DNA from: Betaproteobacteria bacterium
Lineage (GTDB): Bacteria > Pseudomonadota > Gammaproteobacteria > Burkholderiales > SG8-41
Direction of reading: 5' to 3'
NCBI GenBank assembly: GCA_021730905.1
Contig: JAKFYK010000036.1
Coordinates: 227,734-291,733 of the forward strand
Length of the DNA stretch: 64,000 nt
The notes below the pieces were generated by a model. The model was not told the DNA's origin and did not search any database. It saw only the letters and a list, made by a program, of their open reading frames with translations. Every line of letters starts with the position of its first letter. Positions within the stretch are counted from its first letter, which is position 1. This document shows, piece by piece, positions 2,483 through 54,966 of the stretch. The translations under genes and the position numbers were made by a program.

Positions 2483-3439
2483 ATGAATCGGTTGCTGATC
2501 ACGCTGGCGCTGGCATTTGCCGCCCCCGCACACGCGCAAACGTATCCCAACAAAACCATCCGCATCGTCGTGCCTTTCGCGCCCGGCGGCAATGTGGACA
2601 TCAACGCGCGCGCGGTGGCGCCGGGCCTTACCGAACTGCTCGGCCAGCCGGTGGTAGTGGACAACCGCGCCGGCGCGGGCGGCATGATCGGCGGCGAGAT
2701 CGTCGCCAAGGCACCGCCCGACGGCTACACGCTGCTGATGGCGTCGAACAGTGTTTACAGCGTTGCGCCCAATGTATTCGCCAAGCCGCTCTACAATCCG
2801 ATCCGCGATTACGCCGCGATTTCCGGCATCAGCAATGTGCCGTTCGTGTTGATTTCGCATCCCTCGGTGCCGGCGAAGACATTCAAGGAGTTTGTCGCGC
2901 TGGTCAAAACCAAACCGGGGCAGATGACCATGGCGACCGCGGGAACCGGCACTTCGAATCATCTCGTCGGCGAGTTGATACAAATGAACGCGGGCATTCG
3001 CATGACCGGTGTACCGTACAAAGGCAGCGGTCCGGCGCTGATTGATTTGCTCGGCGGACAAGTCGATTCGCACGTTGATCAACTGACGGCGTCGATGGGC
3101 TACATCCGCTCCGGAAAAATTCGCGCGCTGGCCGTTACTACCGACAAGCGCGCGCCGCTGCTGCCCGATGTGCCGACACTCGCCGAGCAAGGTCTGAAAG
3201 GCTTTGATGCCACCACCATCACCGGCCTGCTCGCGCCGGCGGCGACATCAAAAGAAGTCATTGATCGTGTGCATGGCGCATTGGTGAAGGTCACCGCACA
3301 GCAAACGATACGCGACCGCTTTGCCGCGCTGGGCGCCACCACGCTTGGCAACTCACCCGCGGAATTCAGCGAGTACATCAAGCAGGACTACGCCAAGTGG
3401 CAAAAAGTGGTGAAAGCAGCCAACATCAGCGCCAACTAA
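2483..3439 (+). CDS. Bug/TctC-family substrate-binding protein
   Basis: AGGAGG RBS. Signal peptide ending AHAQ, then TYPNKTIRIVVPFAPGGNVD, TSNHL, VPYKGSGPA. Confidence 0.9.
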   Translation: MNRLLITLALAFAAPAHAQTYPNKTIRIVVPFAPGGNVDINARAVAPGLTELLGQPVVVDNRAGAGGMIGGEIVAKAPPDGYTLLMASNSVYSVAPNVFAKPLYNPIRDYAAISGISNVPFVLISHPSVPAKTFKEFVALVKTKPGQMTMATAGTGTSNHLVGELIQMNAGIRMTGVPYKGSGPALIDLLGGQVDSHVDQLTASMGYIRSGKIRALAVTTDKRAPLLPDVPTLAEQGLKGFDATTITGLLAPAATSKEVIDRVHGALVKVTAQQTIRDRFAALGATTLGNSPAEFSEYIKQDYAKWQKVVKAANISAN

Positions 3440-3447
3440 AATAGTGT

Positions 3448-3464
3448 TTAAAAACAAATAGTTA
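3448..3464 (+). repeat. AT-rich box S1 (core WTAAAAACAAATACTTA family)
   Basis: TTAAAAACAAATAGTTA. Starts 9 nt after the TctC stop (3439). Its last base is the A of ATG 3464. Confidence 0.7.
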
Positions 3465-4357
3465 TGTATTTTCGGCCGACCGCTTCTGCACCGCTGTGCG
3501 CGGGACCTGATCCACGTCCGCGCCAGCCATCGTTCACGCTGCCACTGGGAGCGACCGACACGCACTTTCACATTTTCGGGCCGATGACGCAGTACGGCTT
3601 TTCGGAAAAACGCATTTACACGCCGCCCGATGCGCTGCTCGCCGACTGGCAACGGCTTGCCAACACGCTGGGCGTTGAGCGTGGCGTGATCGTGCAGCCG
3701 TCGGTGTACGGCACAGACAATTCAGTGACGCTGGCGAATCTTAAAGCCATGAATGGAAAATGGCGCGCGATAGTCGTAGTTGAAGACAGCATCACCGACA
3801 ACGAACTCGAAGCGATGCACGCACTCGGCGTGCGCGGCATACGCTTCAACGTGGTTGATGTCGCCACCGAGAAAGGCGTGCTGCCGATGCATCTGGTGCG
3901 CGGCCTGGCCGAGCGCATCGCGCCACTGGGCTGGCATGTGCAGTTTTTGATGCACGTGGATGATTATTCCGATCTGGAAAAAATGTTCGACGGCTTTCCG
4001 ACGGATATCGTGATCGATCATTTTGGTTACATGAAAGCTTCCAAGGGTCCAAACCATCCGGGCTTTCGGGCGTTTTTGCGTTTGCTCAAGGGCGGGCGCT
4101 GCTGGTGCAAATTTACCGGCGCGTATCGCATCTCCGCGCATGACATGCCCTATTCCGACGTGACGCCGCTGGCGCATGCCATCATCGATGCCAATCCCGA
4201 CCGCGTGGTGTGGGGTACCGACTGGCCGCATCCCAAACATGAAGGTGCCATGCCCAACGACGGCGAGATGTGCGACCGGCTGCTCGATTGGATTCCCGAT
4301 GCGGCGATTCGCAACCGCGTACTGGCGAAAAATCCGGCACGGCTTTATGGCTTTTAG
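3464..4357 (+). CDS. Amidohydrolase-2 family hydrolase (LigI-like lactonase pattern)
   Basis: GATDTHFHIFGP metal motif and WGTDWPHP near the C-terminus. The ATG abuts AT box S1. Confidence 0.8.
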   Translation: MYFRPTASAPLCAGPDPRPRQPSFTLPLGATDTHFHIFGPMTQYGFSEKRIYTPPDALLADWQRLANTLGVERGVIVQPSVYGTDNSVTLANLKAMNGKWRAIVVVEDSITDNELEAMHALGVRGIRFNVVDVATEKGVLPMHLVRGLAERIAPLGWHVQFLMHVDDYSDLEKMFDGFPTDIVIDHFGYMKASKGPNHPGFRAFLRLLKGGRCWCKFTGAYRISAHDMPYSDVTPLAHAIIDANPDRVVWGTDWPHPKHEGAMPNDGEMCDRLLDWIPDAAIRNRVLAKNPARLYGF

Positions 4358-4392
4358 GAGAAGTATCAGAACATTCAAATAGGGAGATCGTC

Positions 4393-4854
4393 ATGCGTAT
4401 TCATATGCTTTTGGCAATCATGTTTGCCGCATTTTTGTCGTCTTGCGCCAGCAACACAGGTAGTGGCGGCGCCGATCTGGCAGCCAGGGAACAAGTCGTA
4501 GCCGCAGTCGCAGCATGGGTCGCCGCTTACGACAGCCGCGATCCGGCACGAATTTCTGCTCAATACGCGCCTGATGCGGTGTTCTGGGGCACGAGCTCGA
4601 AGACGGTTAGAACAACACCTGCAGCGATTGCCGAGTATTTCCAGGACGCCGCCAAACGTCCGGATGCCAGAGCATCGATCGGCGAGCAGCACATACGCGT
4701 TTATGGAGACGTCGCGATTGCCACCGGCTACAACACTTTTTCAAATGTTCGTGACGGCAAACGTATTCCAAATCCCGCGCGCTTTACCATGGTGTTCCAT
4801 AAGCGCGACGGGAAGTGGATTTTGGTTGACCATCACTCCTCACGGCTTCCGTGA
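4393..4854 (+). CDS. NTF2-fold (DUF4440/SnoaL-like) lipoprotein
   Basis: ORF 4270..4854 trimmed to ATG 4393 (GGGAGA RBS). Lipobox LSSC. Ends ...MVFHKRDGKWILVDHHSS. Confidence 0.7.
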   Translation: MRIHMLLAIMFAAFLSSCASNTGSGGADLAAREQVVAAVAAWVAAYDSRDPARISAQYAPDAVFWGTSSKTVRTTPAAIAEYFQDAAKRPDARASIGEQHIRVYGDVAIATGYNTFSNVRDGKRIPNPARFTMVFHKRDGKWILVDHHSSRLP

Positions 4855-4921
4855 AGACGAGAATTTCCTGACGCACCTGCGCACACTCGGCACAAAAAGT
4901 AAGCGCCGGCTAACTCTATTT

Positions 4922-4938
4922 AAATAATTGTTTTAAAA
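4922..4938 (-). repeat. AT-rich box S2 (degenerate, reverse orientation)
   Basis: TAAATAATTGTTTTAAA has 3 mismatches to TAAGTATTTGTTTTTAW. The flank ...GGATATTTAT resembles the S5 flank. Lies 15 nt upstream of the leuC ATG. Confidence 0.45.
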
Positions 4939-4952
4939 GGATATTTATACAT

Positions 4953-6359
4953 ATGCAGCGAACCCTGTTTGAGAAAATCTGGTCGCAGCACGTGGTAGTG
5001 GACAAAGGTAACGAAGCGCTGCTCTACATTGACCGCAACCTGCTGCACGACGGCGCGTTTCACGCATTCACCGCGCTGGCGAAGGAAGGCCGCAAAGTGC
5101 GCAAGCCGCGCCAGCAACTCGCCACTGCTGATCATTACGTGCCCACGCGCGAACGCGACAAGGGGCTCGAAGCCGTGGTCGATGCGGATGCGCGCGAGAT
5201 GATTCGCCTGTTCGATGCCAACGGTGCCGAGCACGGCATCCGCTGCTTCGGCATGAATGATCCGCAACAGGGCATTGTGCACGTGATCGGTCCCGAAACC
5301 GGTTTCACGCAACCGGGCATCACGCTGACTTGCGGCGATTCGCACACCTCCACCCACGGCGCGCTGGGCGCGTACGCGTTCGGCATCGGCGCCTCGCAAC
5401 TGAAGCAGGTGCTCGCCACGCAATGCCTGTGGCAGAAGAAACCGAAAACGCTGCGCATTACCGTTAACGGTGTGCTCGGCGCCGGCGTTACCGGCAAGGA
5501 TGTGATTCTCGCCATCATCGCAAAAATTGGCACCGCGGGCGCGACAGGGCACGTGATTGAGTACGCGGGCAGCGTATTCCGTGCACTGGCGATGGAAAGC
5601 CGGCTCACCGTGTGCAATATGTCGATCGAAGCCGGCGCACGCGCCGGCATGATCGCGCCGGACGATGTGACGTTTCAGTATCTCGCGGGCCGCGAGTACA
5701 CACCCAAGGGTTCGCAATGGGACACAGCGCTCGCGCAGTGGCGCGCGCTGCCCAGCGATGAAGGTGCGGCATTTGACCGCGAGGTGTCGTTGGCTGGAAA
5801 CGCTATCGAACCCACACTGACCTGGGGTACCAGCCCGGAAGAAGCACTGCCGGTAAGTGCTGCGATTCCCGATCCGGCATCATTTAGCGACGCCAACAAA
5901 CGCGCGCACGCGGAATCCGCGCTGCGTTACATGGATTTGAAACCCGGCACACCGCTCACCGACATCAAAATTGATCGTGTGTTCATCGGCACCTGCACCA
6001 ACGGCCGCATCGCCGATCTGCGCGCGGCGGCATCCGTGCTGAAAGGCCGCAAGGCGACCGTGCAGGGCTGGGTATCACCCGGCTCTACCACGGTAAAGCG
6101 TGACGCTGAGGCCGAAGGCCTGCACCGGATTTTCGAGGAAGCGGGACTCGAATGGCGCGCGTCGGGCTGTTCCGGCTGTGCCGCGATGAACGGCGATTTC
6201 GTGCCGGCCGGCATGCGCTCCGCCTCGACATCCAACCGCAACTTCGAGGGCCGGCAGGGCAAGGGCGCGCGCACGCATTTGATGAGTCCGGCAATGGCGG
6301 CAGCGGCAGCAGTGACAGGACATGTCACCGATGTGCGCACGTTACTGGGAGGGCGCTGA
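4953..6359 (+). CDS. leuC: 3-isopropylmalate dehydratase large subunit-type (aconitase family)
   Basis: Resembles LeuC end to end: YIDRNLLHD, GIVHVIGPE, CGDSHT, CNMSIEAG, GTCTNGR, STSNRNFEGRQG. No leuB in the window, so it could be a catabolic paralog. Confidence 0.75.
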   Translation: MQRTLFEKIWSQHVVVDKGNEALLYIDRNLLHDGAFHAFTALAKEGRKVRKPRQQLATADHYVPTRERDKGLEAVVDADAREMIRLFDANGAEHGIRCFGMNDPQQGIVHVIGPETGFTQPGITLTCGDSHTSTHGALGAYAFGIGASQLKQVLATQCLWQKKPKTLRITVNGVLGAGVTGKDVILAIIAKIGTAGATGHVIEYAGSVFRALAMESRLTVCNMSIEAGARAGMIAPDDVTFQYLAGREYTPKGSQWDTALAQWRALPSDEGAAFDREVSLAGNAIEPTLTWGTSPEEALPVSAAIPDPASFSDANKRAHAESALRYMDLKPGTPLTDIKIDRVFIGTCTNGRIADLRAAASVLKGRKATVQGWVSPGSTTVKRDAEAEGLHRIFEEAGLEWRASGCSGCAAMNGDFVPAGMRSASTSNRNFEGRQGKGARTHLMSPAMAAAAAVTGHVTDVRTLLGGR

Positions 6360-6360
6360 G

Positions 6361-6975
6361 ATGAAACCGTTTACCAAACTCACCGCCGTCGCCGCGCCCT
6401 TCGACATGGCGAATATCGATACCGACAAAATCATACCCGCACGCTATCTGCGCAAACTGCGCAACACGGAAGCAGGCTACGGCCCGTGGCTGTTTTACGA
6501 TATGTGTTTTGATGCAAACGGCAAAGAACGCCCGGAGTTCGTGCTCAATCAAACGCCGTGGCGCGACACCGGCATCATCGTCGCCGCGGAGAACTTCGGC
6601 TGCGGCTCATCGCGCGAAGGCGCGGCCTACGCCATGCTCGACTGGGGCATAAGCGCGGTAATCGCGCCCTCGTTCGGCGACATTCACTACGCCAACGAAA
6701 TCCAGAACGGCATGCTGCCGGCGATACTTGCCGAGGAACACTGCGCCGTGCTGCGCGCACAGCTCAAAGCCACGCCGGGTTCAAGCATCGCCATCGATCT
6801 GGAAACGCAAACCATCACCGGTCCCGACGGCAAGACCTACCGCTTCGACATCGACGCGGTTTACAAGGAGCGCCTGCTGAAAGGCCTCGACGACGTGGGG
6901 CTGGTGTTGCAGGAATTGCCTGCGATAGAGGCGTTCGAAAAGCAGCACCACGAGAAGATGCCATGGCTGGCGTGA
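6361..6975 (+). CDS. leuD: 3-isopropylmalate dehydratase small subunit-type
   Basis: ORF 6322..6975 trimmed to ATG 6361, directly after the leuC stop. Motifs NIDTDKIIPARYL, NFGCGSSREGA. Confidence 0.75.
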   Translation: MKPFTKLTAVAAPFDMANIDTDKIIPARYLRKLRNTEAGYGPWLFYDMCFDANGKERPEFVLNQTPWRDTGIIVAAENFGCGSSREGAAYAMLDWGISAVIAPSFGDIHYANEIQNGMLPAILAEEHCAVLRAQLKATPGSSIAIDLETQTITGPDGKTYRFDIDAVYKERLLKGLDDVGLVLQELPAIEAFEKQHHEKMPWLA

Positions 6976-7515: not shown

Positions 7516-8421
7516 ATGGCATCTGGTCTAGCCGCATTACTCGACGATATCGCAACCATAGCCAAAGTCGCCGCTGCCTCTATTGATGATGTTGCCGCGG
7601 CGGCCGGCAAGGCGGGTACAAAGGCCGCGGGCGTGGTGATCGACGACACTGCCGTCACCCCGCAATATGTGACCGGCTTTACCCCCGACCGCGAGCTGCC
7701 GATTATCTGGCGCATTGCCAAGGGGTCGCTGAAGAACAAGTTACTGTTCATCCTGCCCGCGGCGTTGCTGCTCAGTGCGTTCCTGCCTTGGGCGATTACG
7801 CCCATATTGATGATTGGAGGAGCCTACCTGTGCTTTGAAGGCGCGGAAAAGGTGATGGAAAAATTTGCCGATGCGACCGATGGCAAAGAGGAAACCCTGG
7901 CCGAGGAAGTGGTTGAGTTAACCAGCACCGAACATGAGGCTAATATGGTGGGAGGCGCGGTGCGCACCGACTTCATCCTTTCCGCGGAAATCATGGCGAT
8001 TGCGCTGAATGAAGTTTCCAACCAGACGATCTGGATGCAGGCGGGCAGTCTGGTGTTTGTTGCCATCGCAATCACGCTCGCGGTCTACGGCGTTGTTGGC
8101 ATGATCGTGAAGATGGATGATATCGGCCTGCACATGGCACAACGCGAGCACGGCGGGACGCAGGCGATTGGCCGAACACTGGTACGCGGGATGCCGAAGT
8201 TGCTGGCGTTGCTCTCGACCGTCGGTACTGCGGCGATGCTGTGGGTGGGCGGACAGATTATCCTGCACGGCCTGCATGTGTATCCAGCCAAAGCTGTCGG
8301 GCTGACTGACGGCGTCGTGGGATGGATTGCCGATGCAGCGCTATCGGGCGTGTTCGGCCTCGCACTCGGCGCCGTGATCGTGTGGGTGCACCACAAGATC
8401 ATGCATCGCAAAGGGCATTGA
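7516..8421 (+). CDS. DUF808 (YedI-like) inner membrane protein
   Basis: N-terminus MASGLAALLDDIATIAKVAA...RELPIIWRIAKGSLKNK resembles YedI. Multiple hydrophobic segments. Confidence 0.8.
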   Translation: MASGLAALLDDIATIAKVAAASIDDVAAAAGKAGTKAAGVVIDDTAVTPQYVTGFTPDRELPIIWRIAKGSLKNKLLFILPAALLLSAFLPWAITPILMIGGAYLCFEGAEKVMEKFADATDGKEETLAEEVVELTSTEHEANMVGGAVRTDFILSAEIMAIALNEVSNQTIWMQAGSLVFVAIAITLAVYGVVGMIVKMDDIGLHMAQREHGGTQAIGRTLVRGMPKLLALLSTVGTAAMLWVGGQIILHGLHVYPAKAVGLTDGVVGWIADAALSGVFGLALGAVIVWVHHKIMHRKGH

Positions 8422-8426
8422 TGCCA

Positions 8427-8443
8427 CTAAAAACAAATACTTA
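8427..8443 (+). repeat. AT-rich box S3
   Basis: CTAAAAACAAATACTTA. The only copy between convergent gene ends (8421 / 8447). Confidence 0.7.
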
Positions 8444-8446
8444 CAT

Positions 8447-9430
8447 CTATTTCGCCAAACTCAGTTCGGTCAGCGTCTTGAGCTTATCCACACTTTCCTG
8501 ATCGCAGAATTTCAGCGAGTCGCGGCTGTTGAGATAAACGAATTCCTGCAGGCTGCCTTCAACGTCTTTTTTCCATTCCGGCAGTTGCACCATCTTGCCC
8601 AACACGCCGTCCCAGTACTGCGTTTGCGGTGCAGTCATGCCTTTGGGGCCAACCACCATGCGCCAGTTCGACGACACCGAATCCATGCCCTGCTCTTTCA
8701 GCGTCGGTGCGTTGGCCAGCGCGCCGCGCAAGCGCTGCGGCGACGCGATGCCGAGTATGCGCAACTGCCCCGCTTTAGCTTGCGCTATCACCGACGGCAC
8801 CACCGTTACCGCATAATCAACGTGCCCGCCCATCGCGGCAATCACGGCTTCGGGGCCCGATCTGAAAATGACAAGTTTGATCTTGCGCGGATCCCCGTTC
8901 ATGCTTTTGACAGCCTTGCCCAGGGCCACATGGCCGGTACCGCCGCGCGCGTTGATGCCGCCGGACACCGAATTTGGATCTTTGGCTATTTGCTGAACCA
9001 AGTCGCGCGCAGTTTTGAACGGCGAATCGGGTTTCACCACGATGACCAAATAATCGTGCGCGATCAGCGCGAGCGGCGTGATGTGCGTGTAGGACAGCGG
9101 GCTTACGCCGGTGATGCGGTTGGTCACCAGCGTGGCATTGGCCATGGAAATAAAATGCCCATCACCGACATTCTGGTTCATGTAGACCATGCCGACGGTG
9201 CCGTTGGCACCCGGCTTGTTGACCACATGGCTCGACACGTCCAGCAGTTTTTTCTCCTGGAACAAGCGCTGAATGGTGCGCGCGGGCCGGTCGGCCCCGC
9301 CACCCGCACCCGACCAGACGATGATCTCGACATTTTTGTCCGGTTTCCATTGCTGCGCATGCGCGGTAGCCGCGCACCATATGATGGCGAACAGCGCTGC
9401 CAGGTGATTCATTCCGATGCACCGTTTCAT
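8447..9430 (-). CDS. TctC-type (Salmonella TctC-like subtype) substrate-binding protein
   Basis: ORF 8447..9526 trimmed to ATG 9430 (AAGGAG RBS). Signal ...ATAHAQQ, then WKPDKNVEIIVWSGAGGGADR. The C-terminal ...LSLAK resembles the TctC ending. Confidence 0.85.
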   Translation of the reverse strand: MKRCIGMNHLAALFAIIWCAATAHAQQWKPDKNVEIIVWSGAGGGADRPARTIQRLFQEKKLLDVSSHVVNKPGANGTVGMVYMNQNVGDGHFISMANATLVTNRITGVSPLSYTHITPLALIAHDYLVIVVKPDSPFKTARDLVQQIAKDPNSVSGGINARGGTGHVALGKAVKSMNGDPRKIKLVIFRSGPEAVIAAMGGHVDYAVTVVPSVIAQAKAGQLRILGIASPQRLRGALANAPTLKEQGMDSVSSNWRMVVGPKGMTAPQTQYWDGVLGKMVQLPEWKKDVEGSLQEFVYLNSRDSLKFCDQESVDKLKTLTELSLAK

Positions 9431-9458
9431 GCTGGTCACTCCTTTTTGCCCGTCCTTG

Positions 9459-15443: not shown

Positions 15444-15519
15444 TGCAGCGGGACGGCGATGCAGTGTAGGATGGACAAAATCCCTAGCGTGAACAACCAT
15501 CTTTCTTACCCTATAAAAT

Positions 15520-16524: not shown

Positions 16525-16550
16525 CAACCCCTTAACCGAGCGAGCATAAA

Positions 16551-40447: not shown

Positions 40448-40460
40448 TAAAGGATTCACC

Positions 40461-44341: not shown

Positions 44342-44704
44342 GCGAAGCGCCGATTGATTATTACTCACGCGAAGATTTAACAGAGCGAGGTTTTTTGGTA
44401 CCGCTTTTGTAGTCCAAGAAATCAAAATTTGACAAGCCTTATCGACTACTCTTTTTAGTATGCACCGCTTTCCAAAAAGGATATTTAAACAAATTCCAAG
44501 CAAGTGAAATATTGAGCCGGGGTTACTCCAAGCATTAGGGCCTTTCCGATATGTGTAGACGCTAGACGTTTCTAAACCTTTTTCGGCGCGTTTAATTAAT
44601 TCTTCAAGAAAAGCGTCTCGATTGTCCTCATTGTTTGGAGTTTGTATCATCGAACGTAACCATCTATTGTGAGCAAAACTCGAAGAACTTGATTTTTCTG
44701 TAAA

Positions 44705-45050: not shown

Positions 45051-45096
45051 TCAATGTTGGTTGTGCAAGCCCCACTTCAGCATATAAAAATATGTA

Positions 45097-45113
45097 ATAA
45101 AAACAAATACTTA
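45097..45113 (+). repeat. AT-rich box S7
   Basis: ATAAAAACAAATACTTA at the right edge of the low-GC islet, between the antitoxin start (45007) and hydrolase paralog 3. Confidence 0.7.
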
Positions 45114-45281
45114 CAAACATCATGGTTCACGGTCACGTAAATCTCATGTCGCGGCCTAGATACGCAGCCAACTTGACTCCGCATCTACGTAAGTAGAATC
45201 TTCTTACCCTTGCAGGTCCGGCTCCGGCAAGCCGCGCAGATGATGCCGCCGGTCCTCGCGTCCAACAAAAGAGAGCCCACG

Positions 45282-47132: not shown

Positions 47133-47297
47133 GGTCGCATCCAGGTTTCATTGCCGGTATCGCTGGTAGCCTGATCCGTAATTTGGGCTTGTCGTTTCGA
47201 CCTGTCATGCTCATGCGCCATGCTGTCCGGCGTTGGTGAGAGCAGTGGCAGGCAAGATTGCCAACACGTATGCTGCAACAGACTTACAGGAGGAGGC

Positions 47298-50228
47298 GTG
47301 AGCGTCGGTCGGGCAAAAAAGGGGGCGAATAAACGCGGCCGTGCGCACGACCTGACCGAGGAGGCCCTCGAACAGCAGGCCGCCACGGCCGAGATCCTGC
47401 ATGTGATAGGCAACTCGCCGGCGGATTTGGAGCCGGTATTCCGCACCATATTGTCGAATGCCTCGCGCCTGTGCCAGGCGAGCGTGGGCGCCGTGTTCCT
47501 GTTCGATGGCGAGGTGCTGACGAATGTCGCGCACCAGAATGCATCCCCCGAATTTGTACAATTCCTGAATCGTTCTGGCCGGCGACCGAGCCGCGAAACG
47601 ACCACACGGCGGTGCGCGCTCGAGCGGTGCACGGTTCACACCGCCGACCTGCTGAATGATCCCGATTACGCGCCTCCCGAATTCCAGCGGCGCGAGAACG
47701 TACGCGCGGCGCTTTCGGTTCCGATGATACGCGATGGCGTTTTGATCGGCGTCATCACGCTGTGGCGGCATGTAACGACACCCTTTACCGACAGGCAGAT
47801 CGCACTGGTGCAGACCTTCGCCGACGAGGCAGTGATTGCCATCGAGAACGTGCGGCTATTCAGGGAACTCCAGGCGCGCAATGTCGAAATCACGGAGTCG
47901 CTGGAACAGCAGACGGCTACGGCAGACATCCTGAGCGTCATCAACAGCTCACCGACGGATCTGCAGCCGGTGTTCGACGCGATTCTGGAAAAGGCGATCC
48001 GCCTGTGCGACGCGCATATGGGCCACCTGCGGTTATACGACGGGGAAAGGTTTCTGGACGTCACGCAGCGAGGCGCCAAAGCTGAATACGCCAGGTTTCT
48101 CAGCGAAAGAGGCTCATTTCGACCGCCCCCCGGCGGGGTCTATGCACGCATGACGGACGAACGGCAACCCCTTCAGATCGCGGATATCAGGAATTCATCC
48201 GAGTACCGTGATGGCCTTAAGGGCGTAACCGCGCTGGTCGAACTGGGCGGCGCACGGACTTTTATGGTAGTGCCCATGCTCAGGGACGGACGTGTCGTCG
48301 GTGGCATCTCCATTTACCGCCCCGAGGTGCGCCCGTTTACGCAGAGGCAGATAGCCCTGGTAAGCACGTTTGCGAATCAGGCGGTGATCGCGATTGAGAA
48401 CGTGCGCTTGTTCAAGGAACTCGAAATACGCAACAAGGATCTGTCTGAAACGCTGGAACAACAGACCGCAACCGCCGAGATCCTGCGGGTAATGTCGAAC
48501 TCGCCGGCTGACGTGCAGCCGGTGTTCGAGGCGATCGTGCGCAGCGGAATCCGCCTGTTCGAGGGCGCAGGCGTGACGTTGTCCCGTCCCGAGAATGGAC
48601 AGGTACGACTGATGGCGATCGCCGAGCGCGATCCGCAGCGCGTGCGTCTGTGGAATGCGCGCTTTCCCTTTCCGCTGACGCGCGAGTACATGCATGGTGC
48701 GGCTATCCTTGATTGCCGCATGGTCGATATGCCGGACGTTGAGCAAATGGACGAGCACTTCGCGGCCGGTAAGCGCAATTTCGCCGCCTCAGGATACCGC
48801 GCCATGACGGTCGTGCCGATGGTCAAGGAGGGTGCTGCAATCGGTACGATTTCAGTGGTGCGCGACGCGGCAGGGCCATTGAGCGACAAGAAAATCGCGC
48901 TGCTGAAGACGTTCGCCGATCAGGCGGTGATCGCCATCGAGAACGTGCGGTTGTTCAATGAAACCAAAGAGGCGCTCGAACAGCAGACGGCCATCAGCGA
49001 AATCCTGCACGTGATCTCGGGTTCTCCTGGCGACGTGGCACGAATGCTCGAGGCCGTGGCGCTACGCGCCGTGAAACTCTGCGAGTCGGGCGAAGCAGGC
49101 ATCTTCCTGCTTGACGGTGAGCGGCTGAAATTCGCGGCCGGCTGCCAGAGCGGGGAGACCTTCAGGCCGGGCGAAACCATACCGCTAAGCCGCGGCAGCG
49201 TGCTGGGACGCGCCGTCATCGACCGTGAGACCGTGCATGTTGTCGACCTGGCAGCCACCGCCGCCGGGGATTTTCCATTAGGCATCGAGTATCAAAAACG
49301 GTTTGGGCACCGCAGCCTCGTCGCCGTGCCGCTCATGCAAAAGGACCGTGCCATCGGCGTGATCGGACTGTGGCGTTTCGAGGTGCGGGAGTTCAGCGAA
49401 AAGCATATTGCGCTGGTCCGGACTTTTGCCGACCAGGCGGCGATTGCGATAGAGAATGTGTCGCTGTTCAACGAGATTCAGGAGAAGAGCCGACAGCTTG
49501 AGATCGCCAGCCGCCACAAGTCCGAGTTCCTCGCCAACATGTCGCACGAACTGAGGACGCCGCTCAACGCGGTCATCGGCTTTACGCGCATCGTCATGCG
49601 TCGCTCCCGCGAACAAATCGAGACCCGGCAATACGAGAATCTGGAAAAGATACTCTCGAGCGGGCAGCACCTGCTTGCGCTCATCAACTCGATCCTCGAC
49701 CTCGCCAAGGTGGAGGCAGGGCGCGTCGAGATCAATGCAACGCAGATCGGCCTTGCGTCAGTGCTTGAAAGCTGCGCGCGCACCATCGAACCGCTGGTAA
49801 AGGCCGAGGCTGTGACGCTGGTGAAGGAGTTCGGCGATACCCTGCCGCAGATGTACGTCGACGAAGAAAAACTGCGGCAGATCGTGATCAACCTGCTGAG
49901 CAATGCCGCCAAATTTACTGCGCACGGCAGCATCCGGCTGCGGGCGCGGGCACTGAACGACTCCGTCGTGATTGCCGTTACCGACACCGGTATCGGCATT
50001 GCCCCCGACAAGCTCGACGTGGTCTTCGAGGAGTTCGCGCAAGCCGATGCAAGCAGCACACGCGTCTATGGCGGCACGGGGCTCGGCCTTACCATCGCGC
50101 GCCGCCTCGCCCGGCTCATGGCCGGAGAAATAACGGCGGAGAGCACGATCGGCAGCGGCTCGACATTCACGCTGATCCTACCGCTGCGCTATGGTTCGTC
50201 TGGCCCGTCCAAGGCATCCGGCGTATGA
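47298..50228 (+). CDS. Cytoplasmic sensor histidine kinase with four tandem GAF modules
   Basis: ORF 47220..50228. GTG 47298 follows AGGAGG. There are four repeats of LEQQTA(T/I)(A/S)(E/D)IL...SP.D..PVF...FA(D/N)(E/Q)A(V/A)IAIENV(R/S)LF. Then the H-box SHELRTPLN and an HATPase (GTGLGL). No TM segment. Confidence 0.85.
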   Translation: MSVGRAKKGANKRGRAHDLTEEALEQQAATAEILHVIGNSPADLEPVFRTILSNASRLCQASVGAVFLFDGEVLTNVAHQNASPEFVQFLNRSGRRPSRETTTRRCALERCTVHTADLLNDPDYAPPEFQRRENVRAALSVPMIRDGVLIGVITLWRHVTTPFTDRQIALVQTFADEAVIAIENVRLFRELQARNVEITESLEQQTATADILSVINSSPTDLQPVFDAILEKAIRLCDAHMGHLRLYDGERFLDVTQRGAKAEYARFLSERGSFRPPPGGVYARMTDERQPLQIADIRNSSEYRDGLKGVTALVELGGARTFMVVPMLRDGRVVGGISIYRPEVRPFTQRQIALVSTFANQAVIAIENVRLFKELEIRNKDLSETLEQQTATAEILRVMSNSPADVQPVFEAIVRSGIRLFEGAGVTLSRPENGQVRLMAIAERDPQRVRLWNARFPFPLTREYMHGAAILDCRMVDMPDVEQMDEHFAAGKRNFAASGYRAMTVVPMVKEGAAIGTISVVRDAAGPLSDKKIALLKTFADQAVIAIENVRLFNETKEALEQQTAISEILHVISGSPGDVARMLEAVALRAVKLCESGEAGIFLLDGERLKFAAGCQSGETFRPGETIPLSRGSVLGRAVIDRETVHVVDLAATAAGDFPLGIEYQKRFGHRSLVAVPLMQKDRAIGVIGLWRFEVREFSEKHIALVRTFADQAAIAIENVSLFNEIQEKSRQLEIASRHKSEFLANMSHELRTPLNAVIGFTRIVMRRSREQIETRQYENLEKILSSGQHLLALINSILDLAKVEAGRVEINATQIGLASVLESCARTIEPLVKAEAVTLVKEFGDTLPQMYVDEEKLRQIVINLLSNAAKFTAHGSIRLRARALNDSVVIAVTDTGIGIAPDKLDVVFEEFAQADASSTRVYGGTGLGLTIARRLARLMAGEITAESTIGSGSTFTLILPLRYGSSGPSKASGV

Positions 50229-50587
50229 AGTCCATACTCATAGTCGAAGATGTCGAACTGAACCGTGATCTATTGGTACAGTTGCTCGAGGACAGTTACC
50301 AGTTGGTGCTTGCCGCGGACGGTGTAACCGCACTTGAGCGCGCAGCCGAGGTAAAGCCAGACCTGATACTCATGGATCTTTCTCTTCCGCGCATGGACGG
50401 CTGGGAAGCCACGCGGATACTGAAGGCGGATGCGGCGCTCTCGCACATACCTGTGATCGCACTTTCGGCCCATGCCATGCGCAGCCACGAGGCGCGTGCA
50501 CGGGCGAGCGGTTGCGACGATTTTCTCACCAAGCCGATCGACGAAACACTGCTCTTCAAGAAAATAGCGAGTTACCTTGGCAACTGA
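50225..50587 (+). CDS. Single-domain response regulator (REC only)
   Basis: ATGA overlap with the kinase stop. ILIVEDVELN...LILMDLSLPRMDG...KP. Confidence 0.85.
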   Translation: MKSILIVEDVELNRDLLVQLLEDSYQLVLAADGVTALERAAEVKPDLILMDLSLPRMDGWEATRILKADAALSHIPVIALSAHAMRSHEARARASGCDDFLTKPIDETLLFKKIASYLGN

Positions 50588-50597
50588 ACCGTCATCC

Positions 50598-51983
50598 ATG
50601 GTTGCTACCGTCCTCATCGTCGACGACGAGCCGTTGAACGTCGATCTGCTCGAGCAGGAGCTCGCGGCAGCGGGATATCGGACGCTGTCGGCTGCGAACG
50701 GCGAAGAAGCGCTGACCGTGGCGAAGGCGCTGCCCGACCTGGTGCTCCTCGACGTGATGATGGAAGGCCTTGATGGCTACGCGGTGTGCGAGCGGCTGAA
50801 GGCCAACGATGCCACGCGTACGATTCCGGTGATCTTCCTGACAGCGCTGACGGATTCATTCGAGAAAGTGCGCGCTTTTTCAGTCGGCGCGGTGGACTAC
50901 GTGACCAAGCCTTTCGAGACCGGGGAGCTGCTGGCGCGCGTCGGCACCCATATCGCCTTGCGCAGGGAAATCGAAGCACACCGCAAGTCGAGATCGACAA
51001 TTCAGTATCTGGTGGAGGAAATCCGCTCGGATCGCGACGCGATGGTGGGCGAATCGCCGGCGCTGAGACATGTCCGGGAGCAGATCGCACAGGTCGCGCC
51101 CACCGACAGCACCGTGTTGATTCAGGGCGAGACCGGCACGGGAAAGGAGTTGGTCGCGCGCGCAATCCACGAACTCAGCTTGCGTCGCGAGCGGCCGCTG
51201 ATTAAAGTCAATTGCGCCGCACTGCCGCGCGATCTGGTGGAAAGCGAACTGTTCGGCCATGAAAAAGGTGCGTTCACCGGCGCCACCCAGCAACGCCGCG
51301 GGCGCTTTGAGCTTGCCGACGGCGGCACGCTGTTTCTCGACGAAGCGGGCGAGCTTCCGCTCGACACCCAGGCCAAACTGCTGCGCGTGCTGCAAGAGCG
51401 CGAGTTCGACCGCGTCGGCGGCACACGCAGCCTGCGCACCGATGTGCGGGTAATCGCCGCCACAAACCGCGATCTGCACGCACGCGTCGAGGATGGCGGC
51501 TTTCGCGCCGATCTCTACTACCGGCTCAACGTATTTCCGATTGTGGTGCCGCCGTTGCGCGAGCGCCGCGACGACATTCCCGGCCTGGTGCGGCACTTCG
51601 TGGCAAAGGCCGCGCGCAAACTCGGGCGCACACTAGACGGAATCTCTCCTGCTTTCGTCGAACGCGCATGTGCCTACGCGTGGCCGGGTAATATCCGCGA
51701 ACTGGAAAATCTTGTCGAACGCGCGGCCATTATGTCGCGCGGCGCAGTGCTCGATGCCGTCGATCTTTTCTCGTCAGCTTCTGCAACTGCATCTGAAAAA
51801 ACGCCCGCTGTAATGGCGGGCGACGCCATGCTCGAAGCTGTCGAACGCGCGCACATACAGCAGGTGTTGGAACGCACGCGCTGGGTAATCGAAGGCGAGC
51901 GAGGCGCGGCTCGCATTCTTGGTCTCAATCCCAGCACACTACGCGGCCGACTGCGCAAGCTCGGCATTCGCAAGACCTCTTAA
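50598..51983 (+). CDS. Sigma-54-dependent response regulator (NtrC family: REC + AAA+ + Fis-type HTH)
   Basis: ORF 50577..51983 (TTG). ATG 50598 preferred. VLIVDDEPLN...LLDVMMEGLDG. Walker A GETGTGKE. GAFTGA loop in HEKGAFTGA. C-terminal ...AARILGLNPSTLRGRLRKLGI. Confidence 0.9.
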   Translation: MVATVLIVDDEPLNVDLLEQELAAAGYRTLSAANGEEALTVAKALPDLVLLDVMMEGLDGYAVCERLKANDATRTIPVIFLTALTDSFEKVRAFSVGAVDYVTKPFETGELLARVGTHIALRREIEAHRKSRSTIQYLVEEIRSDRDAMVGESPALRHVREQIAQVAPTDSTVLIQGETGTGKELVARAIHELSLRRERPLIKVNCAALPRDLVESELFGHEKGAFTGATQQRRGRFELADGGTLFLDEAGELPLDTQAKLLRVLQEREFDRVGGTRSLRTDVRVIAATNRDLHARVEDGGFRADLYYRLNVFPIVVPPLRERRDDIPGLVRHFVAKAARKLGRTLDGISPAFVERACAYAWPGNIRELENLVERAAIMSRGAVLDAVDLFSSASATASEKTPAVMAGDAMLEAVERAHIQQVLERTRWVIEGERGAARILGLNPSTLRGRLRKLGIRKTS

Positions 51984-51985
51984 GT

Positions 51986-52039
51986 CGTCGTATTTCGCGG
52001 ATTTCCCCCGTCATATTTGACAGTGCCGTCATATTTGAC
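51986..52039 (+). promoter_or_regulatory. Upstream activator sites of cassette P1 (three related sites, two GTCA-N4-TGAC dyads)
   Basis: CGTCGTATTTCGC (51986), CCGTCATATTTGAC (52008) and CCGTCATATTTGAC (52026). Offsets are 23 and 18 bp. Centres lie roughly -118, -95 and -77 relative to the predicted start. Confidence 0.5.
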
Positions 52040-52054
52040 GACCTTATAAATTTA

Positions 52055-52071
52055 TAAGTATTTGTTTTTAT
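52055..52071 (-). repeat. AT-rich box S8 (reverse orientation, inside sigma-54 cassette P1)
   Basis: TAAGTATTTGTTTTTAT. TGGCAC begins 31 nt after the ATAA that precedes the core. It overlaps the perfect 16-bp palindrome CTTATAAATTTATAAG (52043-52058). Confidence 0.75.
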
Positions 52072-52084
52072 TCATTTTTTTGTT

Positions 52085-52099
52085 TGGCACGCGACTTGC
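52085..52099 (+). promoter_or_regulatory. Sigma-54 (-24/-12) promoter P1
   Basis: TGGCACGCGACTTGC has the canonical GG-N10-GC spacing. It lies 43 nt upstream of ATG 52142, downstream of the UAS and AT box S8. Confidence 0.7.
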
Positions 52100-52141
52100 C
52101 ATAAGTCAAGCTCCGATAAATCATTTTTTCAACAAAGGAGC

Positions 52142-53011
52142 ATGATCATGACCACCGCATTGCAAACCCGTAAGTCCGTCTCTTCCAACCAAGCGCCATC
52201 CACCAGTGCACCGGTGAATTTCGACGCCATCAAGCAAAAACAGCAAGCCACGTGGGCGAGCGGCGATTTCGCCATCATCGGCACCACGCTGCAAATCGTC
52301 GGCGAGACCCTGGCGGAAGCCGCCGACGTGCGTGCCGGCGAACGTGTATTGGACGTAGCTGCCGGCAACGGCAACGCCACGCTCGCTGCCGCACGGCGCT
52401 TTGCGCAGGTGACTTCCACCGATTACGTGCCGCACCTGCTGGAAAAAGGCGCCGCGCGCGCTAGGGCCGAGGGACTCGAGGTGCGCTTCGAGGTCGCGGA
52501 CGCCGAAGCCCTGCCCTACGCAGGTGAATCCTTCGACGTTGTACTGTCCTCCTTCGGCGCGATGTTCACGCCGCAACACAGCCGCACCGCGCTCGAACTG
52601 CTGCGCGTCACGCGCCGCGGCGGGCGCATTGGCCTCGCGAACTGGACACCCGAAGGCTTCATCGGGCAACTGTTCCGCGTCATCGGTGCTTATGTGCCGC
52701 CGCCCGCCGGCATGCAGTCGCCGGCGTTGTGGGGCACCGAGTCGCACATCGCGAAGCTGTTTGGCACGCAGGTCTCCGACATCCGTTGCGTGCGGCGCAA
52801 CTTCAACTTCCGCTACCGTTCAGCGCAGCACTGGATTGACGTATTCCGCGCTTTCTACGGACCTACGCACAAGACATTCGCGGCACTCGATTCGGCAAAC
52901 CAGGTGAGCCTTGCGGCAAGCATCACCGCCCTGCTCGACAAGCTGAACGTGGGCGGGCCGGGCTCGCTGGTAGTACCGAGCGAGTACCTCGAAGTCGTCA
53001 TCACCAGATAA
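52142..53011 (+). CDS. Class I SAM-dependent methyltransferase
   Basis: AAAGGAG RBS. VLDVAAGNGNATL (motif I), ...FDVVLSSFGAMF..., ...GGRIGLANW.... Confidence 0.85.
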   Translation: MIMTTALQTRKSVSSNQAPSTSAPVNFDAIKQKQQATWASGDFAIIGTTLQIVGETLAEAADVRAGERVLDVAAGNGNATLAAARRFAQVTSTDYVPHLLEKGAARARAEGLEVRFEVADAEALPYAGESFDVVLSSFGAMFTPQHSRTALELLRVTRRGGRIGLANWTPEGFIGQLFRVIGAYVPPPAGMQSPALWGTESHIAKLFGTQVSDIRCVRRNFNFRYRSAQHWIDVFRAFYGPTHKTFAALDSANQVSLAASITALLDKLNVGGPGSLVVPSEYLEVVITR

Positions 53012-53037: not shown

Positions 53038-54180
53038 ATGAAAAAATTGATTTGCGCCGCCACGCTGGCGGCAATTATTGGCGCGGCCACTACGGCACAT
53101 GCCGAAACCGGCAGCGCCGCACCCACGCAGGAATCGGCCACTTTAACGTGGAACAAAATCGCGCTGGAGTCTATCGAGCGCGCCAAGCCCACGCAGCATC
53201 AGGCGATACGGCTACTCACGCATGTGTCGCTGGCGCAGTACGCGGCACTCGCCGCGGCAAACGAGGCAGCGGCGCGCGATGCCGTGGCCGCGGCATCGGC
53301 GCGTGTCATCGCCGAACTGATGCCCACGCAGGCATCATTTGCACAGGAACGTTATCGTCAGTCGCAAGCCGGTACAATCGATGCCGGGGTGCGCGCCGCG
53401 CAACGCGTGCTCGATGAGGCGCGCAGTGATGGCTTTGGCACGGCCTGGAACGGCCAGGCGCCGCAAGCGGCTTGGGCATGGCGCAGCCTGGCGAATCCGC
53501 CAGCGCCGGCAGCGTATCCAGCGATCGGCGGCATGCGCACCTTCTTCGCCGAGTCCGGCAATAGCTTTCGGCCCGTAACCGCTCCCGCGCCCGGCACTAC
53601 ACGCTTTACCACCGATATCACGGAAGTGCGTTCCTATACCGACGCGCCGACGGCGGAAACCACGCGCATTGCAAAGTTCTACGACATGACCACCGGCACG
53701 CTGGCAGGCGGCTTCTGGAACGAACGCGTAGCGGAACTGATACGCAGGCACGCAACCGGTGAGCGGCAAACGGCAACCGTTCTGGTCACACTCAACGCCG
53801 CGATGATGGATGCGCTTGTCGCGTGCCACGACGCAAAGTACGTCTACTGGGTACCACGCCCGTCGCAGGCAGACCCGTCGATCAAGCCGCTGATCGATGT
53901 GCCCAATCATCCGTCGTATCCGAGCAACCATTCATGTCTTTCCACCGCGGCCGCGTTGGTACTCGCGCACTTCTTTCCACAGGAACGTCCGCGTATGGAA
54001 AGCATTGCAACGGAAGCGGGCGTCTCCAGAATCTACGCCGGCCTGCACTACCGTTTCGACGTGGAGGCAGGTGAAGACATCGGCCGCAAAGTGGCGAACG
54101 TGGCGATTGCGCGCCATGCGCAAATGCTGGCGAAGTGGGCACAACCCGAAGCCGTCGCAAGGCAGGCAGCGCGGGAGTAA
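53038..54180 (+). CDS. Secreted PAP2-superfamily protein (vanadium-haloperoxidase / acid-phosphatase-like)
   Basis: Signal ...TTAHAE. The full PAP2 signature is present: KYVYWVPRP (Kx6RP), PSNH (PSGH-like), SRIYAGLHYRFD (SRx5Hx3D). Confidence 0.8.
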   Translation: MKKLICAATLAAIIGAATTAHAETGSAAPTQESATLTWNKIALESIERAKPTQHQAIRLLTHVSLAQYAALAAANEAAARDAVAAASARVIAELMPTQASFAQERYRQSQAGTIDAGVRAAQRVLDEARSDGFGTAWNGQAPQAAWAWRSLANPPAPAAYPAIGGMRTFFAESGNSFRPVTAPAPGTTRFTTDITEVRSYTDAPTAETTRIAKFYDMTTGTLAGGFWNERVAELIRRHATGERQTATVLVTLNAAMMDALVACHDAKYVYWVPRPSQADPSIKPLIDVPNHPSYPSNHSCLSTAAALVLAHFFPQERPRMESIATEAGVSRIYAGLHYRFDVEAGEDIGRKVANVAIARHAQMLAKWAQPEAVARQAARE

Positions 54181-54204
54181 TTGCCTACACAAAATACCCG
54201 ACAG

Positions 54205-54231
54205 CCGGCGGACTGAATGTCCGCCGGTTTT
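54205..54231 (+). terminator. Rho-independent terminator
   Basis: CCGGCGGAC-TGAAT-GTCCGCCGG followed by TTTT, starting 25 nt after the stop at 54180. Confidence 0.7.
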
Positions 54232-54236
54232 GCTTG

Positions 54237-54865
54237 TCGGGGCCAAGGGCGGCGAGGTCGTGTTGCAATGCGCAGGTACCGACCTGCATCGCGTACATCA
54301 CTCGGCCGTCTATAACTAGAACCTATTTCATGATTATTCGCGTGATGCGTTGTGGCCCAAACACGATGGATGCAAGGAGCGCGGCAGTCCCAGCTTCGAA
54401 TAGGGGCAAGCCGTGCGACGCCGCAGACGCGTGTTTGGGCCACAACCCTTCGGGACGGGGCACTGCGGGCGCGCTGCTTTGTCGGCCTCGCTTGCCATAT
54501 TCGCGATATGGCTGCGCGAGTCCTCCTCGCATCGCATCCCGCATTGCCGCCGTCGCACACGTGAATAATCATGAAATAGGTTCTAGTCATCGAGCAACGT
54601 CGGATTCAACCTACCGTACTGGGATCGACTGTGCGGCACGCATCTCGCGCAACCGGCTGCTGGTGCAGCCGTTCCGCGACACGCCTGGGACTCACCCGAT
54701 CAACCTGCGCCAGGAGGCGCCGTGAGCGTTTGGCGCGCGCTGATCCCGCACTTGCTTGATCGCTTCTGAAATCAAATTCTGAAGTGGGTCAATATTCAAT
54801 CAGCGCCAACATTGCAGCTCGCTCGCGGCCGGCTACGCAAGCTCGGCATCCGCAAGACTTCCTGA
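54237..54865 (+). pseudogene. Decayed paralog of the NtrC-type activator (REC missing, internal deletions, frame changes, MITE insertion)
   Basis: Frame-hopping remnants, each compared with gene 50598..51983: VLLVGAKGGEVV...HRVHHSA (cf VLIQGETGTGKELVARAIHELS); IDCAA (cf VNCAA); RLLVQPF...INLRQE (cf RLNVFPIVVPPLRER); LIPHLLDRF (cf DIPGLVRHF); ...GRLRKLGIRKTS* (identical C-terminus). Confidence 0.55.
54315..54587. mobile_element. 273-bp MITE-like non-autonomous element
   Basis: The 30-bp terminal inverted repeats ACTAGAACCTATTTCATGATTATTCGCGTG (54315-54344) and 54558-54587 are 29/30 complementary. The GC-rich interior holds a perfect 17-bp stem (54349-54365 / 54430-54446) and the hairpin GCCATAT-TCGCG-ATATGGC. 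No plausible ORF. Target-site duplication not identifiable. Confidence 0.6.
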
Positions 54866-54866
54866 A

Positions 54867-54921
54867 CCGTCGTATTCAGCGGATTTGCACCGTCATATTT
54901 GACGGCACCGTCGTATTCAAC
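54867..54921 (+). promoter_or_regulatory. Upstream activator sites of cassette P2
   Basis: CCGTCGTATTCAGC (54867), CCGTCATATTTGACGG (54890, a perfect 6-N4-6 dyad) and CCGTCGTATTCAAC (54908). The 23/18-bp offsets match P1. Confidence 0.5.
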
Positions 54922-54936
54922 AGCGTTAAATATGTA

Positions 54937-54953
54937 TAACTATTTGATTTTAT
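54937..54953 (-). repeat. AT-rich box S9 (reverse orientation, inside sigma-54 cassette P2)
   Basis: TAACTATTTGATTTTAT. Its reverse complement contains AATCAAATAGTTA, a perfect match to the IHF consensus WATCAANNNNTTR. The 31-nt offset to TGGCAT matches P1. Confidence 0.75.
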
Positions 54954-54966
54954 TAAATTTTTATAT

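Follow-up and report, generated by a model that had tools for sequence, protein, structure and literature searches.

An AT-Rich Box With the Architecture of an Integration Host Factor Site Recurs in GC-Rich Burkholderiales Genomes

The Window and Its Boxes

The stretch of DNA described herein, referred to as the window, comprises 64,000 nucleotides of a Betaproteobacteria bacterium genome (GenBank assembly GCA_021730905.1, contig JAKFYK010000036.1, forward-strand positions 227,734 to 291,733). It is a catabolic region of a Burkholderiales-type genome, with a G+C content of about 60% throughout, many hydrolase and dehydrogenase genes, and a greatly expanded family of TctC/Bug periplasmic receptors, which account for about 13 of its roughly 60 genes. 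A short AT-rich box is repeated along this region, between genes of every relative orientation as well as at the very start of coding sequences. A preliminary description of the window had reported about ten copies of this box and had favored, among several readings, a site bound by integration host factor (IHF). The box aligns along its full length to the canonical IHF site and is found in dozens of related genomes, and it probably is an IHF-type site. The copies in the window are given below with their strand, the position of the 17-mer core and, for some, the score.

Box S1: 3438–3473, + strand; 17-mer 3448–3464; 54 bits
Box S2: 4912–4947, − strand; 17-mer 4921–4937, 3 mismatches; 42.7 bits
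Box S3: 8417–8452, + strand; 17-mer 8427–8443; 30 bits, 3' half of the motif only
Box S4: 15514–15549, + strand; 17-mer 15524–15540; start of a TctC-family gene
Box S10: 16545–16580, + strand; 17-mer register 16555–16571; 23.6 bits on the extended matrix, apparently a decayed copy
Box S5: 37229–37280, − strand; 17-mer 37254–37270; divergent region
Box S6: 40421–40456, + strand; 17-mer 40431–40447; 54.6 bits
Box S7: 45087–45122, + strand; 17-mer 45097–45113; divergent region
Box S8: 52030–52081, − strand; 17-mer 52055–52071; cassette P1; 60.9 bits, the best of the window
Box S9: 54912–54963, − strand; 17-mer 54937–54953; cassette P2; exact match to WATCAANNNNTTR

When the 17-mer WTAAAAACAAATACTTA is sought with up to three mismatches, the window yields nine matches (S1 to S9) against 0.04 expected, a count reached by none of the 100 dinucleotide shuffles from which the expectation was taken. 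Eight copies have two or fewer mismatches. With four mismatches and neither the invariant C nor the TTA, the tenth, S10, is apparently a decayed copy; it opens a tandem TctC paralogue. The number of copies, the count of eight close ones, and the coordinates and strands given in the preliminary description are all correct; the minus-strand orientation of S2 was absent from it. Its shared flanks are likewise real: counted from the first base of the 17-mer, conservation begins at about −10 and ends at about +25, so that the extended matrix covers about 36 bp. S3 lacks the upstream A-tract half of this motif.

The boxes make up 10 of the 15 strongly AT-rich islands of the window (at least 20 A/T per 25 bp), at a density of one box per 6.4 kb. 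A generic pattern, AAAW-N3-WW-N3-WAWCAA-N4-TTR, has four matches in the window with none expected, and all four are boxes. Another AT island, at 44469–44499, reads AAAAAGGATATTTAAACAAATTCCAA, resembles the 5' two-thirds of the box (ATATTTAAACAAAT) and lacks the TTA; judged by this resemblance, it may be a further decayed copy.

The Box in Other Genomes

An exact-match scan with the 16-mer TAAAAACAAATACTTA, in which every species was represented by one genome, returned at least 116 loci. Among the matches listed, more than 60 lie in GC-rich (56–69%) metagenome-assembled genomes (MAGs) of Burkholderiales/Betaproteobacteria, several of which hold many matches each. In these GC-rich MAGs, the 16-mer is always part of an AT island some 36 bp long whose 5' flank is conserved as either AAAATATCAA or AAAATATGTT; in AT-rich genomes, the flanks around the 16-mer are unrelated. 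Sixty-three loci (439 kb) contain 39 further copies with one to three mismatches, and an iterated matrix brought together 131 copies in 503 kb (121 from other loci and 10 from the window). Of these, 62 were not selected by the exact 16-mer and are referred to as the non-ascertained set. The preliminary description had proposed a wider pattern search, and in this search the box recurs across GC-rich Burkholderiales MAGs at about one per 7–8 kb. Of those AT-rich islands that the search had not ascertained, 61% are boxes. The box is a feature of dozens of GC-rich Burkholderiales MAGs and is not strain-specific.

Individual copies are also conserved in place. The nearest relative among the matches listed is the MAG HER22_SIP_1000_bin_49, with about 80% nucleotide identity. 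Two loci are syntenic with the window, L071 with 903–4357 (80% identity) and L044 with 4917–6975 (74% identity). S1 is kept at the orthologous site of L071, with 16 of 17 core bases identical and the same overlapping ATG, and S2 is kept at the orthologous site in both loci. The two boxes are 1473 bp apart in the window versus 951 bp in L071 (6877–7828), where there is no room for the SnoaL/DUF4440-like gene that separates them in the window (4270–4854); an indel therefore lies directly beside a box.

A BLAST search of plasmids with a 35-mer consensus was swamped by AT-rich genomes and gave one Polaromonas region with a single strong copy. This region (L119, copy at 25055–25071) is plasmid pPNAP03 (about 110055) of Polaromonas naphthalenivorans CJ2, a cultured Comamonadaceae strain; its copy, ATCAAATCAAATACTTA, is intergenic and carries the canonical T (AATCAAATACTTA). 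A scan of viral contigs produced only three GC-rich matches. In two viral contigs and one genomic locus, the box stands directly 3' of a tRNA gene or tRNA-like fragment (L136 10755–10847, tRNA-Lys; L185 4370–4415; L092 1–53). A role as a phage attachment arm beside tRNA genes was considered and set aside, no integrase having been found nearby. Literature searches found no relevant mention of the box sequence or of MFKNKYL, a peptide encoded by some copies (see below), and nothing relevant on IHF motifs in Burkholderiales.

Motif Anatomy

With positions counted from the first base of the 17-mer, the matrix of the 131 copies consists of an A-tract at −10 to −5, three weakly specified bases, WW at −1/0, TAA at +1 to +3, AAACAA at +4 to +9, N4 at +10 to +13 and TTA at +14 to +16, followed by an AT-rich tail that extends to about +25. 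The canonical IHF site has WATCAA near its center and TTR four bp further 3', together with two AA steps nine bp apart, which are the points of proline intercalation, and an A-tract of 4–6 in its 5' half (PMC1874591). The box aligns to all four of these elements without gaps and at the canonical spacing. The lambda attP H' site ATAAAAAAGCATTGCTTATCAATTTGTTG, read from the lambda record, can be divided into A6, GCA, TT, GCT, TATCAA, TTTG and TTG. Both attP H' and cos I1 share with the box the succession of A-tract, N3, AA/TT, N3, WATCAA, N4 and TTR, in the same order and spacing and over about 35 bp; unlike them, the box has mostly A at the third base of WATCAA, as well as a conserved TAA and 3' AT-rich tail.

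The A frequency is 0.52–0.93 at −10 to −5, and this A-tract is followed after eight bases by the WATCAA slot, as in ATAAAAAAGCATTGCTTATCAA. The WATCAA slot is occupied by AAACAA in 102 copies, AATCAA in 11, TATCAA in 2 and GATCAA in 1, so that C-A-A and the preceding A are nearly invariant, whereas the T has given way to A in most copies, which puts these one base away from the consensus. In the TTR slot, 114 copies have TTA and 7 have TTG. In the non-ascertained set, the corresponding numbers are 33 AAACAA, 11 AATCAA and 2 TATCAA, and 45 TTA and 7 TTG. The most variable part of the core is N4 (ATAC 14, ATAG 9, TTAG 6, ATAT 5 and others in the same 62 copies), and the preliminary description had rightly placed the variation in the four bases between CAA and TTA.

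The two kink steps are present as well, with AA at +8/+9 (in CAA) and AA or TT at −1/0. The bases at −1/0 covary as AA or TT (mutual information 0.675, reached by 0 of 500 shuffles), the only strong coupling in the motif and one that is predicted by an ApA step usable on either strand. More generally, the changes that are tolerated are those which the IHF consensus allows: WATCAA takes A or T as its third base, TTR ends in either A or G, and the upstream step can be AA or TT.

The box matrix was also scanned across all 96,940 positions of phage lambda. The second-ranked match has its core at 74–89, inside cos I1, whose IHF site occupies bp 65–90 between R3 and R2 (PMC4856287). The ninth is attP H2, in register. 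Ranks 1 and 3 fall at 35745–35777 and 35647–35685, upstream of pL, and may be the IHF sites of that promoter, which IHF reportedly stimulates (Giladi et al. 1998). A matrix built from Burkholderiales boxes recognizes documented Escherichia coli IHF sites, though not all of them. The four-element architecture, the allowed substitutions and the recovery of lambda sites all support, at the level of sequence, the IHF site that the preliminary description had put forward as its leading reading.

Placement Relative to Genes

The contexts of the 131 copies were classified with a simple codon-model gene finder. Co-directional gaps contain 21 copies in sense orientation and 34 inverted ones, convergent gaps 14 and divergent gaps 13; about 20 copies lie inside called genes, at least nine of them at the fifth nucleotide of an open reading frame (ORF). 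A box is present in 21% of the co-directional, 26% of the divergent and 24% of the convergent gaps, and a non-ascertained copy in 7.9%, 15% and 9.5%, respectively. Among convergent gaps with a box, the median length is 31 bp, so that the box takes up practically all of the gap. The tabulation by position and orientation suggested in the preliminary description thus gives both orientations and every type of gap, with no fixed orientation or position relative to a downstream gene and no absence between convergent genes. Since there is no orientation preference and convergent ends are not avoided, a promoter, translation or RNA element is unlikely, and the mobile promoter or translation-initiation cassette and the A/U-rich translational enhancer, which had been listed as alternatives, do not serve as general explanations.

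Sigma-70-like hexamer pairs and terminator-like hairpins were not found at the boxes, except for one weak promoter-like match at S4; since such elements are in all no more numerous than in shuffled sequence, a reading of the boxes as sigma-70 promoters or intrinsic terminators was rejected. Rfam covariance models gave no match at the gathering threshold anywhere in the window. In E. coli, ChIP-seq (chromatin immunoprecipitation sequencing) identified about 1,040 IHF-bound regions, with less than 10% of the motifs upstream of operons (PMC3333857). The box density of one per 6–8 kb is comparable with that of these regions, and density and lack of promoter bias together make the boxes resemble IHF sites elsewhere (PMC3333857).

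The copies of the window illustrate this variety, and the start-codon contexts of S1, S2, S4, S6 and S10 and the convergent setting of S3 agree with those described previously. S1 fills the 24-bp gap between the stop codon of a TctC-family gene (3437–3439) and the ATG of an Amidohydro_2 gene (3464), which shares the box's final A. S2 runs opposite to the aconitase-family (LeuC-like) gene that begins downstream of it at 4953 and whose AGGA ribosome-binding site is supplied by the low-information spacer of the box. S6 has on one side the stop codon (40422) of an EamA gene and on the other the ribosome-binding site (AAGGA) and GTG (40461) with which an enolase-superfamily gene starts. S3 is located between convergent stop codons, with the end of a DUF808 gene at 8421 and that of a minus-strand TctC gene at 8447.

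Two copies occupy divergent regions. S5 stands between a minus-strand TctC gene (36161–37144) and a divergent pilin-like gene; it opens a 54-codon ORF, MFKNKYLLLSLSIRTEG..., which runs from 37274 downwards on the minus strand in a frame different from that of the TctC gene and may be a relic of a former signal-peptide start or a chance ORF. S7 stands between an antitoxin-like gene (44705–45007, −) and a hydrolase gene (about 45210, +). The former encodes a HigA-type antitoxin (PF21716) without a recognizable intact toxin partner, and an 84-codon ORF (45133–45387) overlaps the hydrolase gene on the opposite strand.

Five of the ten boxes adjoin a TctC/Bug gene. A specific link to this family was considered and dropped, as the number is unremarkable where about 13 of about 60 genes are TctC. 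At least 13 such genes were recognized:

TctC/Bug receptor genes, first seven: 2–772, 2483–3439, 8447–9526, 11714–12676, 15520–16524, 16551–17552, 18891–19886
TctC/Bug receptor genes, remaining six: 19933–21012, 30279–31286, 36161–37144, 61041–62072, 62155–63135, 63170–63991

Overlap With Signal-Peptide Starts

Some copies are translated. At least 13 of them read ATG/GTG-TTT-AAA-AAC-AAA-TAC-TTA, that is, MFKNKYL, followed by a hydrophobic stretch and an AxA-type cleavage site. The proteins that begin in this way are clearly different from one another and include TctC receptors, two 557-residue proteins, a 272-residue binding-protein-like sequence and lipoproteins. Coding copies are found at 15520–15540 of the window and in L002, L017, L041, L068, L077, L097 (three), L099 and L101 (two), and the in-frame variants MIKNKYL and MNKNKYL are also followed by a normal signal peptide. 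In the window, translation of S4 in the frame of the ATG at 15520 gives MFKNKCL, the signal-peptide n-region of a TctC-family protein, and S10 is read as (M)FNKKYF at the start of the tandem TctC paralogue, with TTT in place of TTA.

The coding copies use the GTTT form at −2 to +1, which provides the ATG and TTT codons and keeps the TT kink step; roughly half of the GTTT-form copies are such start sites. We read these starts, and the overlaps at S1 and S2, as a DNA-level constraint that would have been fitted into the few coding or signal positions with room for it. Signal-peptide n-regions require lysines but hardly anything more. A translational benefit from an unstructured A/U-rich start is possible, although it does not have the power to explain the whole motif.

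The Sigma-54 Cassettes P1 and P2

S8 and S9 belong to two cassettes with the features listed below.

Sigma-54 activator of the NtrC type: 50577–51983, + strand; receiver domain, AAA+ domain and Fis-type helix-turn-helix
P1 sigma-54 promoter TGGCACgcgacTTGCc: 52085–52100, + strand; GG at 52086–87, GC at 52098–99
Relic of the activator gene's final 13 codons (RGRLRKLGIRKTS and stop): 54824–54866, + strand; non-coding, in P2
P2 sigma-54 promoter TGGCATgcgtcTTGCg: 54967–54982, + strand; GG at 54968–69, GC at 54980–81

Both cassettes have the same order: CGTCATATTTGAC(A/G) repeats, a reversed box, TGGCAC/TGGCAT-N5-TTGC and, 31–42 nt further on, a start codon. In P1, S8 lies between the CGTCATATTTGAC(A/G) enhancer repeats (about 52009–52040) and the sigma-54 promoter. 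P1 is predicted to drive a methyltransferase gene (52142–53011) and a PAP2 gene (53038–54180), and P2 the gene of a DUF3455 protein (ATG 55035, end 55676). The 17-mer spans about −56 to −40 in both, in agreement with the position of about −47, between the upstream activating sequence and the −24/−12 element, that had been given for the box. The activator gene is preceded by those of a GAF histidine kinase (47220–50228) and a single-domain response regulator (50225–50587), and its adjacency to the repeats suggests that its product is probably the enhancer-binding protein of P1 and P2. Each cassette contains two to three copies of a 14-bp near-palindrome, CGTCATATTTGACG (51984–52040; 54867–54922), with the weaker forms CGTCGTATTTCGCG and CGTCGTATTCAACA; the NtrC-type activator encoded next to them presumably binds there. 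A similar sequence, TTGTCAAAT, was seen 35–40 bp from the boxes in L083 and L106.

P1 and P2 are 82% identical across about 165 bp. The relic at 54824–54866 shows 100% amino-acid identity with the end of the activator (51942–51983), and because these last 13 codons are retained, P2 is a segmental copy of the activator gene end plus P1. S8 and S9 are therefore one invention copied once and not independent cases.

A third cassette may exist at S5. A weaker candidate sigma-54 element of the GG-N10-GC type, TGGCAGctgccATGCA, is located at about 37203–37218 (−), 35 nt downstream of S5; the TctC gene 36161–37144 has its TTG start about 60 nt further on, and an IHF-type site would lie near −70. S5 and the box of L096 are alike in geometry, with weaker sigma-54-like promoters about 50 nt downstream. 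No enhancer repeats were recognized near S5 or TGGCAGctgccATGCA. Among the 131 copies, 17 have a sigma-54-like match within 200 bp, mostly weak and at scattered distances, and a fixed geometry with a good sigma-54 promoter is found only in the two cassettes of the window. Likewise, the combination of enhancer, IHF-type site and GG-N10-GC is restricted to S8 and S9 among the ten window copies. The IHF-assisted sigma-54 role proposed in the preliminary description thus stands for these two, with one shared ancestry, and does not extend to the other copies in general.

Interpretation and Alternatives

The reading favored here, to which a probability of about three in four is assigned, takes the boxes for full-length IHF-type sites of high affinity, two of which, of common origin, would bend sigma-54 promoters and the rest of which would be general chromosomal sites. 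Both the identity of the binding protein as IHF and every function downstream of it are what we infer from the motif. From 5' to 3', the A-tract, N3, the AA/TT step, TAA, AAACAA/AATCAA in the WATCAA slot, N4, TTA/TTG in the TTR slot and the AT-rich tail would together form a site on which IHF wraps about 35 bp and bends it sharply. In P1 and P2, the center of the bend would lie near −44 and bring the NtrC-type activator, bound at the adjacent CGTCATATTTGACG repeats, onto the sigma-54 RNA polymerase in the classical arrangement. The eight other copies would be ordinary chromosomal IHF sites that survive where AT-rich DNA is tolerated, that is, in short intergenic gaps of every kind and at lysine-rich signal-peptide starts. 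Candidate local roles include nucleoid architecture, insulation between transcription units and modulation of nearby promoters. A more far-reaching proposal is that the stereotyped IHF-type box, as the dominant type of AT-rich island, is a clade-wide chromosomal punctuation, selected at every type of gene boundary, including convergent ends about 31 bp apart and MFKNKYL starts, with bends that insulate transcription units or organize the nucleoid. The boxes would then amount to one architectural code for the whole genome and not to a set of local regulatory sites; this is regarded as rather unlikely.

Several observations weigh against an IHF site. For the strict E. coli consensus WATCAANNNNTTR, the window shows no enrichment (3 matches versus 0.96 expected), and S9, whose exact match had been pointed out in the preliminary description, is the sole box among the three. 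About 80–87% of the copies have A where the E. coli consensus has T (AAACAA, not ATCAA). Moreover, TAA, the AT-rich tail and, in part, ATAC are conserved where E. coli IHF specifies nothing; such extra conservation may stem from an IHF particular to the clade, from indirect readout, from a second factor or from the use of the exact 16-mer for ascertainment. In the lambda scan, H' and H1 remained outside the top 20, and most copies are far from any recognizable sigma-54 promoter.

The box could instead be the site of another clade-specific DNA-binding protein, such as an H-NS-like silencer, an HU/IHF paralogue or an unknown global regulator, with an IHF likeness that is partial or coincidental. 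The conserved TAA (+1 to +3) and AT-rich tail would suit such a protein, as would the rarity of the strict IHF consensus among the copies, and the 5' part TCAATAAAAA fits 7 of 10 bases of the H-NS nucleation motif TCGATAAATT. Nevertheless, an asymmetric four-element architecture with the exact IHF spacing and the AA/TT alternation at the kink, combined with a matrix that recovers cos I1 and attP H2 of lambda, makes this explanation improbable; for H-NS in particular, a 36-bp AT island in GC-rich DNA is a poor filament platform, and the GTTT form fits the motif poorly. A function at the level of RNA or gene expression has been judged very unlikely. According to this explanation, the box is an A/U-rich leader for ribosomal protein S1 or Hfq that replaces a ribosome-binding site, or a portable promoter. 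Many copies do have a start codon within 0–20 nt, the genes at S1 and at its L071 orthologue begin with a box-overlapping ATG and have no ribosome-binding site, at least 13 copies form the first seven codons of secreted proteins, and the sense reading holds AAA-AAC-AAA, an ARN-type repeat. On the other hand, inverted copies outnumber sense ones in co-directional gaps (34 to 21), occupancy of convergent gaps (24%; 9.5% non-ascertained) is not below that of co-directional gaps (21%; 7.9%), S8 and S9 are upstream of the transcription start, and the promoter, terminator and Rfam searches yielded only the weak match at S4.

The least credible of the explanations considered is that the box, as a miniature mobile element, a repeat spread by gene conversion or a signal for DNA uptake, has multiplied in these genomes and carries an IHF-like sequence by chance. 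Near-identical copies are numerous and some fill entire intergenic gaps of 30–40 bp, as a repeat might; the SnoaL-like gene between S1 and S2 is absent from L071; both orientations occur, as for uptake sequences; and the RIP/BIME-1 elements of E. coli and the Correia elements of Neisseria carry IHF sites too. However, conservation ends at about 36 bp, and the aligned copies show no inverted repeat or further flank, terminal repeats and target-site duplications not having been formally searched. Only neighboring positions covary, and this lack of linkage between distant positions means that there is no subfamily structure. The same box is also found in many MAGs and at orthologous sites in genomes that are only 74–80% identical, and one copy per 7 kb is well below the density of known uptake sequences.

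Comparison With Known Systems

RIP/BIME-1 of E. coli are repeated extragenic IHF sites flanked by repetitive extragenic palindromic (REP) sequences. They resemble the boxes as repeated intergenic IHF-type sites, often at gene ends and without an obvious promoter role; unlike them, the box has no flanking REP palindromes, is solitary and shorter, and can overlap start or stop codons. The Correia elements of Neisseria are miniature inverted-repeat transposable elements of about 100–150 bp with terminal inverted repeats, TA duplications and an internal IHF site. They share with the boxes a betaproteobacterial host, abundance, an intergenic location and an IHF-type site, whereas their size of 100–150 bp, inverted repeats and TA duplications were not seen in the aligned boxes, for which no formal search was made. 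The IHF-assisted sigma-54 promoters nifH, glnHp2 and Pu (PMC2709558) are matched by S8 and S9, which lie between enhancer repeats and the −24/−12 element, beside the gene of an NtrC-type activator. The difference is that only two of the ten copies (possibly three) have this setting here, and the two are duplicates. In addition, the box abuts the −24 element and the bend would be near −44, which is closer than in the textbook sigma-54/IHF promoters.

The kind of element is known. It is less familiar for such an element to be so stereotyped and dominant in one clade, to lie between convergent genes separated by 31 bp and to serve repeatedly as MFKNKYL as well.

Outlook

The IHF motifs of E. coli are degenerate, and most of them do not lie upstream of an operon (PMC3333857). 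Should the boxes bind IHF, they would constitute an unusually clean natural set of strong sites, and because they stand out singly in GC-rich DNA, their placement can be read from the sequence. The purpose of the many IHF sites that do not serve promoters would then become testable, as would the manner in which a constraint on DNA coexists with coding, at MFKNKYL starts and where boxes overlap ribosome-binding sites and stop codons; in E. coli, both questions are blurred. For annotation, the box may serve to mark gene boundaries and IHF-assisted sigma-54 promoters in lineages that are dominated by MAGs.

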